Below, one piece after another: positions 2,596 to 64,000 of a stretch of 64,000 nucleotides of DNA. Below the pieces are notes generated by a model. The model saw nothing but the letters and a program-made list of their open reading frames with translations. It searched no databases and was not told the origin of the DNA. The position numbers and the translations under genes are program-made. The number at the start of each line of letters is the position of its first letter. Position 1 is the first letter of the stretch. Source of the stretch: an uncultured virus (IMG/VR IMGVR_UViG_3300001605_000024) (taxonomy: Duplodnaviria > Heunggongvirae > Uroviricota > Caudoviricetes); the IMG/VR virus record IMGVR_UViG_3300001605_000024, positions 1-64,000 of that record; one strand, given 5' to 3'.

Positions 2596-2855
2596 TTCCT
2601 TATATAAATACTTCAACCACCCCAACTTCAGTTATACGTGAGTTTAGTTCTGAAGTAGATCCAATGGAACTTATATGGCATCAGGATAAAGAAGACCGTA
2701 CAATTGAAATATTAGAAGGAGAGGGTTGGCAATTTCAAAGAGATAACGAATTACCTTTGGCGCTCCAAAAAGGAGATATTATATTTATACCGGAATTTCA
2801 AGTACATAGAGTAATAAAAGGTAATACTGATTTAAAAATTAAAATAACAAAATAA
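2592..2855 (+). CDS. Small cupin-like protein
   Basis: WHQD...LEGEGW...GDIIFIP...HRVIKG fits the two cupin motifs; ATGA overlap with the upstream gene. Confidence 0.6.
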   Translation: MIPYINTSTTPTSVIREFSSEVDPMELIWHQDKEDRTIEILEGEGWQFQRDNELPLALQKGDIIFIPEFQVHRVIKGNTDLKIKITK

Positions 2856-3242
2856 TGGCAAAAGAAATACTAAGTGAAGAATTCCAAAGAATGCAAAAAT
2901 TGGCGGGATTAATAAATGAGCAGCAACTTGAATTAGATTTTGATCCCAATGCTATCAAATTAACTCCAGAGCAGAAAGAAGAATTTGATGAAGAAATAAA
3001 TGATTTTATTTATACCACAAATTGGGATTTTGCTTATAAACAATCTGGAAATATTTTAGCTAAGATTCTCACAGATTATAAAGCTAAAAGCTGGAAAGAT
3101 GTTCAAGAATATGGGTATAATCCTAAAGAAGTTAGAGATTTGGGTAGAAAACTAGCTGAAGAATTTTATGACAGTTAATAACAAAATAATGGCAAAAGAA
3201 ATACTAAGTGAAGAATTCCAAAAAATGCAAAAATTAGCAGGA
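2843..3242 (+). repeat. 66-bp direct repeat (2843-2908 and 3177-3242) covering the translation-initiation region and 18 leader codons
   Basis: aataacaaaataATGGCAAAAGAAATACTAAGTGAAGAATTCCAAA(G/A)AATGCAAAAATT(G/A)GC(G/A)GGA, 3 mismatches. Confidence 0.95.
2855..3178 (+). CDS. Putative head-internal protein with EEFQRMQKLAGL leader
   Basis: Leader shared with 3189, 48367 and the scaffold C-terminus. Confidence 0.6.
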   Translation: MAKEILSEEFQRMQKLAGLINEQQLELDFDPNAIKLTPEQKEEFDEEINDFIYTTNWDFAYKQSGNILAKILTDYKAKSWKDVQEYGYNPKEVRDLGRKLAEEFYDS

Positions 3243-3422
3243 ATTCAATTAAACGAAAGAATAAGTTTTGAGGCTATTGAAAGAATGGAAGGTTTAGCAA
3301 ATACGCAAGACTTAGCTTCTCTACAAGTCAAACTTCGTATACTATCCTCAGATTGGATGCAAGAGGGATTTGAGAAAGAAGACATTATAGACTACTTAGC
3401 ATATTTAGTAGACAATATTTAA
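3189..3422 (+). CDS. Putative head-internal protein with EEFQKMQKLAGI leader
   Basis: Start at 3189 is supported by the duplicated initiation region. Confidence 0.6.
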   Translation: MAKEILSEEFQKMQKLAGIQLNERISFEAIERMEGLANTQDLASLQVKLRILSSDWMQEGFEKEDIIDYLAYLVDNI

Positions 3423-3479
3423 TACAAACATTCAGACCGATTCATAGCCAGTCGTCCTTAACCGGAAAAAACTTATCGG

Positions 3480-3518
3480 AGCTGTGGCCCATTTATTTGG
3501 AGCCGCAGCTTTCTTTTT
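3480..3518 (+). terminator. Intrinsic terminator overlapping a promoter-like element
   Basis: AGCTGTGGC (3480-3488) pairs with GCCGCAGCT (3502-3510) and is followed by TTCTTTTT; TTTG 3496-N20-TATATTCA 3520. Confidence 0.75.
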
Positions 3519-3546
3519 ATATATTCACTAAGTAATTTAATATAAT

Positions 3547-4845
3547 ATGGACAAAAAGAAAATAGTAGTGATCGGGGGAGGAGTAGCAGGAGCTCATGCC
3601 ATTACAAAATTAGTAGATAATGGTTATCCCGGAGAACTCATCACTGTAATTGATATGGGTAAAGATCCATATAATCGAAAACCAGATGAAGTAATGTCAG
3701 GATGGTTAGGATGTGGAGGTTTCTCTGATGGTAAATTAACCTACCATCATATGATTGGGGGTCAATTATCTAAATACTGCGGTGAAGAAAAAGCATACCA
3801 ATTGATGGGTGAAGTAATAGAAACATGGAAACGTTTCCACCCTGACCCATCCAAAATTATGTACTCCAACCCAACTGAAGAACCTGATTTTATCAAACCC
3901 TACTTTGGTCTTCGTCTGTTTGGAGTATACCACATTGGTACTGATTACCTGCATGAAATCGGAAAACGATGGTATGATTATTTAGTATCTAAAGGTGTCA
4001 ACTTCCATTGGGAGACTAAAGTTGACAATATTTACTTTAATACTAACCAAATAGTAATAGGGCATAATTATCTTAAATATGATAAACTTATATTTGCTGT
4101 GGGTAAAAGTGGTATTGATTTTGCCCAGCAACTAGCAAATCAATATGAACTGCCCGATGAACCTAAATCCGTACAAATTGGTGTTCGGTTTGAGGCACCA
4201 CAACGTCACTTTCAAAAATTAATAGATATATCCTATGATTTTAAATTATATCGCAAGTATGAAGATGAAGGTGTATCACTTCGCTCATTCTGTACAAATA
4301 ATAATGCAGCATATGTGGCTGTAGAGGAAACATATGGTGATGTCAGTTACAACGGACATGCAAAGAAAGATGAACGTTATAGAAATAACATGACTAATTT
4401 TGGCATTTTAATGGAAATTAAAGGTATTGAAGATCCATTTGAATGGTCTAGAAATTTAGTTGCTAATGTTAATGCTAGCGGAACTGGTTTATATTATTCA
4501 CCATCTAGACGTCCCTCTCTAACATCTGAAGGTGAGAGAGTATCAGCAGTTATGCTTAACTCTAAACAATTAGAAGACATAGTTAAACCTGCTTTTAAAG
4601 GATATTTTAGATATATTGAAGATTTTATTGAGGATATGAAAAAAATATTTCCAACATTAGAAGATGATTGGTCTATATATATTCCGGAAGTAAAATATTT
4701 ATCACCTGAACCGCTTGTAGATTACACTAACTTAGCCTTGACTAAATTTCCTAATGTACACTTTGTAGGTGATGCTTTAAGTGCAAGAGGTATAACAGTA
4801 AGTGGAGCGCATGGTGTTTATGTAGCCGAGAGTATTTTAAGGTAA
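3547..4845 (+). CDS. FAD-dependent oxidoreductase (uncharacterised flavoprotein dehydrogenase family)
   Basis: N-terminal VVIGGGVAG Rossmann motif, GGFSDGKL, FCTNN, and C-terminal HFVGD...ARGITVSG. Confidence 0.85.
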   Translation: MDKKKIVVIGGGVAGAHAITKLVDNGYPGELITVIDMGKDPYNRKPDEVMSGWLGCGGFSDGKLTYHHMIGGQLSKYCGEEKAYQLMGEVIETWKRFHPDPSKIMYSNPTEEPDFIKPYFGLRLFGVYHIGTDYLHEIGKRWYDYLVSKGVNFHWETKVDNIYFNTNQIVIGHNYLKYDKLIFAVGKSGIDFAQQLANQYELPDEPKSVQIGVRFEAPQRHFQKLIDISYDFKLYRKYEDEGVSLRSFCTNNNAAYVAVEETYGDVSYNGHAKKDERYRNNMTNFGILMEIKGIEDPFEWSRNLVANVNASGTGLYYSPSRRPSLTSEGERVSAVMLNSKQLEDIVKPAFKGYFRYIEDFIEDMKKIFPTLEDDWSIYIPEVKYLSPEPLVDYTNLALTKFPNVHFVGDALSARGITVSGAHGVYVAESILR

Positions 4846-4910
4846 ATATTAAAAAAACTTCTTTCCCTGCTAGTTTGGCCTCTCCGGAGGCCTTACTTAA
4901 TTTCATAAAT

Positions 4911-5204: not shown

Positions 5205-5260
5205 GTTTGGCCTCTCCGGAGGCCTTACTTATCTTTAGGTATTAAATAAAAATAAATGTT

Positions 5261-62962: not shown

Positions 62963-63466
62963 ATGATTTACTCACCCACATTTCCTAAACCATACATTCA
63001 GGAGCAATTATCCAAGCTTAAAAAGCTAAACTATAATCAGTTTAGGTGGTGGAGGATGTATGATAATCTCACTCCTCCTCTGCCTAATAAATCTCCATTG
63101 ATTGATAAGATTCTGAATGGTGATTTTGATTATCCTCATTACAAATTGCAAGCAGAACTTGTAGAACATGAACTAAATGAGTTAGTTAAAAAATGTGGAG
63201 GTAACAATGAAAAGTTTGGAGAAAAAAGTTCATTATTGCGAACTAAACGTAAAAGATTACTTGATGACTTTGAAAAAGAAGAAAATGCTAAATTACGACA
63301 ATTAGTAATTGAATTTACTAAAAATTTTGAAGCTACTAAAGAACAAATAGAAGAAGAAATGCTTAGATTTGTTGGTAATTTAGGAGAATTTTATTATTAT
63401 ATGGGAGTTAGATTTCAAAAAATTCAAAATCCAAATAAACGAGGAAGAAAAACAAAAAATATATGA
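62963..63466 (+). CDS. Hypothetical protein
   Basis: 167 aa; YNQFRWWR, I.NGDFD. Confidence 0.65.
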   Translation: MIYSPTFPKPYIQEQLSKLKKLNYNQFRWWRMYDNLTPPLPNKSPLIDKILNGDFDYPHYKLQAELVEHELNELVKKCGGNNEKFGEKSSLLRTKRKRLLDDFEKEENAKLRQLVIEFTKNFEATKEQIEEEMLRFVGNLGEFYYYMGVRFQKIQNPNKRGRKTKNI

Positions 63467-64000
63467 TTAAAATATCACATGAAGTACCTAAATGTTTACT
63501 TAGAAAAAGTCTTGAATTCAATGACTATCAATATGCTTTAGTACATCTATTAGAGGAAGATGAAGTCTATAGAAAACATTTCCTACAGTGTAAAGATGAA
63601 GGAGTTCCTATTTATCTAGATAATAGCCTACATGAACTTGGAACAGCCATTGGTGGAGATATTCTTAAAAAATGGATTAAAATTCTTGAACCTCAACATG
63701 TATTTGTACCTGATGTTTGGCAAGATAGTAAAACTACTATTGAAAACGCTAAAGAATGGATTCAATATTCCTATCCTACAAATACAATCCCAATAGCGGT
63801 AGTACAAAGTAAAAATCTCCAGGAAGCGGAAGAATGTTATATAACGTTGAAAGACATGGGGTATAAGAAAATCGCATTCTCGTATGGCGCTGATTGGTAC
63901 GCTGAAGAATTCACGGAATTTCACATAGATAAAGCCAAAATGTATGGTAGAATATCAACAATTAAACAAATGTTTTATAATGGTACTATTAAAAATGATG
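63463..64000 (+). CDS. TGT/DpdA-like TIM-barrel protein, 3'-truncated and absent from the ORF track
   Basis: MIKISHEVP...IYLDNSLHELG...VPDVW...AVVQ...; open to the window end; ATGA coupling with the upstream gene. Confidence 0.5.
   Translation, partial: MIKISHEVPKCLLRKSLEFNDYQYALVHLLEEDEVYRKHFLQCKDEGVPIYLDNSLHELGTAIGGDILKKWIKILEPQHVFVPDVWQDSKTTIENAKEWIQYSYPTNTIPIAVVQSKNLQEAEECYITLKDMGYKKIAFSYGADWYAEEFTEFHIDKAKMYGRISTIKQMFYNGTIKND

Follow-up and report, generated by a model that had tools for sequence, protein, structure and literature searches.

A conserved pseudoknot and terminator RNA ahead of a flavoenzyme gene in large aquatic T4-like phages: a candidate conditional terminator

Introduction

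Some small pseudoknot riboswitches, among them fluoride/crcB and ZTP, activate genes by preventing an intrinsic terminator from forming. The preQ1-I riboswitch is an H-type pseudoknot with a 5-bp P1 topped by a G–C pair and an A-rich linker that ends in a conserved A; a conserved C lies just 5′ of the P1 3′ strand, and a U is the first loop base of the pocket. In type III toxin–antitoxin systems (ToxI, AbiQ) the antitoxin RNA consists of tandem pseudoknot repeats and is followed by a terminator and the gene of an endoribonuclease toxin. In phage T4, gene 32 has an autoregulatory pseudoknot (mentioned in PMC10690425).

Here we analyse an RNA element in the window, by which we mean the whole stretch of 64,000 nt at the start of a virus record that is 77,267 nt long and 48% complete. 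The major capsid protein shares 57.7% identity with its counterpart in a cultured relative, Flavobacterium phage immuto_2-6A, and the source is accordingly classed by sequence as a large T4-like phage; its host is probably a member of the Bacteroidota. An earlier note on this DNA had proposed a switch-like RNA in which a pseudoknot competes with a terminator upstream of an FAD oxidoreductase gene. Comparison with relatives indicates that the element is a real, conserved and unnamed RNA switch candidate, absent from Rfam 15. We think it likely that it acts as a conditional terminator (an ON-type attenuator) where a variable upstream operon meets the flavoenzyme gene in large aquatic T4-like phages.

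Materials and methods

Viral loci of the enzyme were the best 80 of 596, and the gene start was present in 77 of them. The merged set comprises 143 distinct copies of the element: 45 anchored on the gene, 90 found by pattern, 7 variants and the window copy. Note that the pattern behind those 90 of the 143 copies fixed the pseudoknot bases. A chance match (L113) and a weak call (L019) were excluded before counting, and one copy in a shifted register (L030) was excluded from the P1 counts only. In the covariation scans a non-consensus loop base was forced and the partner base was left free. Alignment A3 consists of 60 hand-chosen rows and is enriched for variants. Copies having less than 150 aa of the enzyme or a duplicate protein were left out of the quick tree (105 rows).

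Results

The element occupies a 124-nt gap between an upstream stop at 3422 and the enzyme gene that starts at 3547 (Table 1). The two ORFs before the gap are probably the tail of an upstream transcript, which we would place late in infection. These adjacent ORFs share near-identical starts of about 70 nt (window 2844–2915 and 3178–3249). Elsewhere in the record, the ORFs at window 63463–64000 and record 64665–65537 were left unannotated by the tools; we take them to resemble DpdA and QueC of 7-deazaguanine DNA modification. A link of the element to 7-deazaguanine DNA chemistry was considered and found unsupported: the accessible parts of 10.1101/2023.04.13.536721 name no FAD enzyme, and immuto_2-6A has neither an element match nor an enzyme match.

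Table 1. Features of the element and its surroundings in the window
Feature	Position	Strand	Details and support
Two upstream ORFs, 107 aa and 84 aa (as listed)	2855..3422	+	stop TAA 3420–3422, 11 nt 5′ of the motif
Stem P1 and 9-nt loop	3434..3454	+	G3435–C3453, A3436–U3452, C3437–G3451, C3438·A3450 mismatch, G3439–C3449
Pseudoknot helix, 5′ strand UCAUAG	3442..3447	+	conservation and covariation
Variable A/U-rich linker, optional small hairpin	3455..3479	+	19–31 nt in relatives; here UCC 3455–3457 / GGA 3464–3466
Conserved A3480, pseudoknot 3′ strand CUGUGG 3482–3487, C3488; doubles as terminator 5′ arm	3480..3488	+	conservation
Intrinsic-terminator-like hairpin 3479–3511 and U-run 3510–3518 (UUUCUUUUU)	3479..3518	+	folding z −5.2
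Promoter-like box: TTTGG 3496–3500, 19 nt, TATATTCA 3520–3527	3496..3527	+	comparison; resembles Bacteroidota −33/−7 promoter
432-aa uncharacterised FAD-dependent oxidoreductase	3547..4845	+	FAD-binding start; closest solved relative VP0956 (3NLC)

The imperfect stem that the earlier note had drawn between GACCG (3435–3439) and CAGTC (3449–3453) is present; it carries one mismatch, is closed by a conserved A3434·G3454 pair and holds a 9-nt loop, AUUCAUAGC, at 3440–3448. The same note had paired UCAUAGC (3442–3448) with GCUGUGG (3481–3487) over 7 bp. These strands are complementary in the window, and the first six pairs recur in relatives; the seventh, C3448–G3481, is not conserved (C–G in 104 of 143 copies, C·U in 37), so that the conserved pseudoknot has 6 bp. 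Its 3′ strand also forms the 5′ arm of a terminator, as had been seen before: the hairpin at 3479–3511, which is followed by the U-run, takes up all six pseudoknot-arm bases in the window and folds at −22.5 kcal/mol, with none of 200 shuffles as good. A simple terminator scan did not list this hairpin. The upstream half (3433–3479) alone folds no better than shuffles (z −0.03), and support for it therefore comes from relatives. The small CCGG/TCGG hairpin placed by the earlier note between the two strands did not hold up: only 24 of 143 copies have a linker that reaches −1 kcal/mol or better, and most of these form a small hairpin right after P1 whose equivalent in the window is the UCC/GGA pairing of Table 1. 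The impression of a GC-rich island was correct (GC 0.49 vs 0.30 for the window).

The C·A mismatch at this point of P1 is found in the window copy alone among 142. In related lake contigs position 3450 is G and the pair is restored, while a contig from one sequencing run, possibly the source sample, has the letter of the window; the window copy itself could be a weakened variant. A pattern search for further copies in the window returned the element alone. In Rfam 15 no family reached its gathering score in a scan of the window, in keeping with the earlier failure to name one; the best weak match was Xoo2 (17.5 bits vs 45, E 0.18), driven by the terminator.

An element of about 55 nt lies upstream of the FAD oxidoreductase gene in 61 of the 77 phage homologs (from the best 80 of 596 loci); of the remaining loci, 9 have incomplete flanks and 7 have about 1.5 kb of upstream sequence without it. 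Each of the five P1 positions is paired in 141–142 of 142 copies, with up to seven pair types, and the closing position is A·G in 124 of 142. Each of the six positions of the knot UCAUAG/CUGUGG is paired in 142–143 of 143 copies, and in 45–46 of 46 when gene-anchored copies, which carry no pattern constraint, are counted. About 17 core bases are near-invariant, more than pairing requires: two U·G pairs are retained in 43 and 44 of the 46 gene-anchored copies, and C3448 is kept in 44 of them even though its partner is U in 8. One record, L006, has two full and different copies 1.1 kb apart (288–339 and 1386–1438), and L332 has an extra incomplete copy, P1 only, before an inserted gene (240–330).

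Covariation is seen in both helices. When loop G was changed to A, the partner was U in 14 of 14 genuine matches (16 matches, 2 by chance; 6 distinct cores), and when loop C was changed to U, the partner was A in both genuine matches, which are identical (5 matches, 3 by chance). The gene-anchored L006, L011, L026 and L070 contribute U–A at both positions. In alignment A3, with its enrichment for variants, 99.5% of the cells are paired, double changes occur in 7 of 11 pairs, and the covariation score is 0.439 vs 0.138 when shuffled and at most 0.110 when slid. All five P1 pairs show double changes; of the knot pairs, two change on both sides, two on one side and two never. According to the quick and rough tree the knot changes represent few independent events, the A–U form occurring in two separate places besides L006. 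Pattern scans point the same way: all four tested P1 pairs are found in 102 of the 120 viral matches listed and in all 119 parsed rows of 120 further metagenome rows, vs 0 of the 120 cellular matches listed. Judged by these comparisons, the RNA structure is real, conserved, covarying and shared by phages.

The overlap of knot and terminator is likewise a property of the family. In 130 of 143 copies four or more of the six pseudoknot-arm bases are paired in the hairpin, vs 309 of 715 arm-shuffled controls. An overlap of exactly 4 of 6 is commonest (81 of 141 hairpins), and some copies, like the window, lose all 6. At least 5 U in 8 nt follow 130 of the 141 called hairpins, and 4 U or fewer follow the other 11. 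Hairpin sequences differ widely, and in L006 and L026 the 3′ arm tracks the change of GUGG to GUAG. As the hairpin takes the knot arm, the two structures cannot both form, and the knot would be the read-through state. The proposal of mutually exclusive folds was thus exposed to the check on conservation and covariation that had been suggested for it, and this failed to refute it.

A feature missed by the earlier note is the promoter-like box at 3496–3527. In 133 of 143 copies there is a box of the form TTG-N19–21-TAHHWT, either within the loop of the hairpin or beyond the U-run; the spacing is 20 in 122. With the box in this position, a view of the RNA as a plain 5′ leader of the gene is not supported. 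In the record of the window, the strict TTGG-N19-TATATT type, written in full TTGG-N19-TA(T/C)(A/C)TT, has 24 plus-strand sites and a single minus-strand site, all with the same spacing (shuffled mean 0.58); it is often joined to a terminator hairpin and stands mostly in gaps before genes. Plus-strand sites include window 3497, 5207, 6468, 10265, 29388, 31933, 38681, 48309, 61769 and 62917. A degenerate third copy of the repeat at 5206 and 6467 lies at window 4875–4910 and has no second box. The Bacteroidota housekeeping promoter, as given in PMC6847099, has TTTG at −33 and TAHHTTTG at −7 with a near-invariant final G; compared with that consensus, the phage boxes have TTTG and TAHHTT at fixed spacing, and the final G is replaced by A. 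The enzyme gene probably has its own promoter, with a start near 3532, past the RNA, and with such a box of its own it would not need read-through. No dedicated promoter was evident directly upstream, where the exact word TATTTATA was found within 70 nt in only 6 of 142 copies. This word was rejected as an upstream late promoter, and it has no strand bias (23 plus, 20 minus). Since no upstream promoter is evident and the upstream gene varies, the RNA would be transcribed as the 3′ end of the upstream unit.

It is important to note that the element follows the downstream gene, whereas the upstream gene is unrelated from phage to phage. The enzyme gene is the first one downstream in 119 of 143 copies, comes after one or two inserted genes in 16, in which the element stays put, and is unseen in 8 short flanks. 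The distance from element to gene is 50–100 nt when they are adjacent and more than 500 nt with inserted genes. Among the 119 parsed metagenome rows, the enzyme is first in 88 and recognisably so in 3 more of 11 classed as other, 7 have one recurrent inserted gene and 13 have no room. A distant clade with about 39% protein identity has the element in 2 of its 4 records and lacks it in the other 2. A single strong copy was found in the phage's own record and in each of the four larger records searched, while five whole records of loci without the element gave a strong match in 1 only; in L072 terminator and promoter are present and the knot is absent. Cysteine-rich mini-ORFs of about 20 codons, metallothionein-like by eye, end just 5′ of the motif in L081, L086, L112, L128, L147, L155, L169, L187 and L192.

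Copies were found in large phages of lakes and the ocean. A scan of the cellular collection with a loose pattern gave at least 120 matches, but these were filled with chance ones and so cannot show absence. A stricter pattern found none in either of two overlapping samples of Bacteroidota genomes (0/401 and 0/401), and a model search found none in 5 cellular genomes with 150 candidates scored per genome. Most metabolite riboswitches, by contrast, occur in cellular genomes. A second, unrelated phage RNA motif was noticed, in which two small hairpins precede a terminator with the loop UCGCUAC (L340 1865–1960; L366–L399). It gave 34 pattern matches, about 20 of them genuine by eye, has no Rfam match and stands before diverse genes and tRNAs; only 2 matches lie before the distant-clade flavoenzyme.

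The closest solved relative of the enzyme matches by sequence (E 9e-6) and is the top Foldseek match (E 1e-13, TM 0.59). Many relatives are named 'uncharacterized FAD-dependent dehydrogenase' by a source. Structures of the RdsA fold family (2GQF and 3V76) are lower Foldseek matches (TM 0.42–0.43), and PF03486, the RdsA/HI0933 family, gave no match at E 0.001 for the window protein and is listed for 3 of 120 relatives. RdsA is an rRNA dihydrouridine synthase, and in PMC11317573 its family is called not isofunctional by the authors. Two relatives are about 820 aa long (P0126 and L345 2498–4954), and P0126 has an insertion of about 380 aa, intein-like in our own reading, at the conserved RSF/C site. 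In Campylobacter Fletchervirus phages an enzyme about 26% identical lies two genes from a dUTPase (L347 5908–7176), without the RNA motif; a literature search for Fletchervirus with deoxyinosine dehydrogenase found nothing. The insertion in P0126, the dUTPase neighbourhood and the kinship with RdsA in the wider fold family are indirect hints of nucleotide or nucleic-acid chemistry.

Discussion

Both folds, their overlap, the linkage to the gene and the promoter-like box are supported by comparison among relatives, and from these we infer switching, its direction, its timing and a trigger. The RNA probably sets how much transcription runs on into the flavin-enzyme gene. As the polymerase leaves the upstream gene, P1 would fold and expose UCAUAG; about 25 nt later CUGUGG would emerge and either pair back, giving an H-type pseudoknot, or be captured by the terminator hairpin. 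We favour an H-type knot over kissing loops because the arm lies outside any conserved second hairpin. Where the pseudoknot blocks the terminator, transcription would continue into the enzyme gene, and where the hairpin wins it would stop at the U-run. Of the two folds the terminator is the more stable, and read-through should therefore require a factor that stabilises the pseudoknot co-transcriptionally. Our first candidate for this factor is a small metabolite connected with the enzyme reaction; a protein or the polymerase comes next, not far behind. In this way the enzyme would receive a second supply, probably a late one, beside that from the gene's own promoter-like box. A counterpoint to an attenuator is that the element is dispensable, some enzyme loci being without it.

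We regard a small molecule on the one hand, and a protein, the polymerase or the ribosome on the other, as about evenly matched triggers. A metabolite riboswitch of a new class, in which a ligand would bind the P1/pseudoknot junction (A3440, C3448, A3480) and turn read-through on, is a tentative reading that we hold at somewhat less than even confidence. The compact H-type knot, the A-rich linker and the invariant junction bases argue for it, as do the overlapping terminator with a single metabolic gene context and the retention of C3448 despite a varying partner, as if this base were reading something else. Against this, no known aptamer in Rfam matches, the element is phage-only so far, it has no visible promoter of its own, and a single gene context gives no clue to the ligand; FAD, FMN, NAD or SAM, named earlier as ligands to assay, are not supported by the sequence comparison. 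A knot stabilised by a protein (the flavoenzyme, a phage antiterminator or RNA polymerase), or set without a ligand by ribosome position or folding kinetics, deserves the same tentative standing. The strict one-to-one association with a single phage gene is consistent with it, as is the failure to find the element in the sampled hosts, and RdsA, an RNA-reducing flavoenzyme (PMC11317573), belongs to the fold family. The phage enzyme is, however, structurally nearer to VP0956 than to the RdsA family, and as a knot binder it would give positive feedback. A ribosome would be within reach in many copies: in 42 of 136 the upstream stop precedes the motif by 5 nt (the mode), and in 7 it falls inside P1, but the distance varies widely, over at least 5–35 nt.

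The same stops raise the question of a signal for stop-codon readthrough or frameshifting in the upstream gene, for which an H-type knot close behind a stop would be suitable. We rejected this as highly improbable, since distances vary, all three reading frames occur, the upstream genes are unrelated and some stops lie within P1 itself; moreover, the stop is TAA in 127 of 136 copies and a terminator follows at once. Less improbable, though still unlikely, is that there is no switch at all: termination would be constitutive, the knot would act in the released upstream RNA, as 3′-end protection or as a processed small RNA partnering the enzyme, and the overlap would be compaction. The position of the RNA at the end of the upstream transcript, the promoter-like box of the enzyme and the usual overlap of 4 arm bases only are in line with this, and since terminators and promoters overlap at other junctions of the phage's own genome, where such fusions are common, the overlap here could indeed be compaction. 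Yet the terminator would dismantle the knot in the terminated RNA, with all 6 arm bases taken in the window, the element tracks the downstream gene while upstream genes change freely, and the genomes searched revealed no copy at their other junctions. Least credible of all is chance complementarity beside an ordinary terminator. The unremarkable folding of the 5′ half and the P1 mismatch of the window copy would allow it, but the P1 pairs in viral and metagenome matches and the compensatory changes refute it, on the comparative evidence, for the family. We therefore retain the conditional terminator as the preferred reading.

A more specific version is that a phage-specific riboswitch class senses a nucleotide-type metabolite that infection produces or uses up and couples late-operon read-through to an uncharacterised flavoenzyme of nucleotide or nucleic-acid metabolism, which is possible although rather unlikely in this precise form. 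If this is true, the identity of the ligand would also name the substrate of the enzyme. Whatever the trigger, it would point to the role of the enzyme, as the element is tied to one VP0956-like enzyme. New classes of riboswitches or attenuators are rare, and one confined to phages would be cheap to test, given its 55-nt core and the hundreds of variants found in nature. The layout, in which a switch ends one operon and overlaps the promoter of the next, would give one gene of a lytic phage a fixed and a conditional supply.

No description of the element was found in the literature on COG2509 or riboswitches that we searched, and the core sequence and FAD terms had no match in the text of PMC10690425, as far as accessible, or in four of its supplementary files. 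The motif may be among the candidate motifs of PMC10690425 or PMC5737381. Of what marks a transcriptional riboswitch, a conserved covarying domain and the overlap with a terminator are present and the 5′-leader position, to judge from the promoter-like box, is absent.

Type III antitoxin RNAs (ToxI, AbiQ) resemble the element in the order of pseudoknot RNA, terminator and protein gene. The element, however, is a single copy (two in L006, at a distance) and not a tandem repeat, its terminator overlaps the knot, and the protein downstream has an FAD-binding fold and is not an endoribonuclease. The knot of T4 gene 32 is, like ours, a phage H-type pseudoknot tied to one downstream gene; the T4 knot acts on translation, whereas the element lies upstream of a promoter-like box and has no fixed position relative to the start codon. 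With preQ1-I the element shares the H-type knot, the 5-bp P1 topped by G–C, the conserved C and the A-rich linker with its conserved A. It differs in that the first loop base is A and not U (135 of 137 copies, 91 of them fixed by the search pattern), the second helix has 6 bp, the linker has 19–31 nt, the predicted logic is ON, there is no Rfam match, and the gene that follows is a flavoenzyme and not one of queuosine synthesis or transport. Fluoride/crcB and ZTP differ from the element in sequence, and the element has no Rfam match, is phage-only so far, and closes an upstream operon while the promoter-like box of its target lies downstream. Nevertheless, it is with these two that it shares a pseudoknot 3′ strand serving as the 5′ arm of the terminator, a predicted ON logic and a covarying core.
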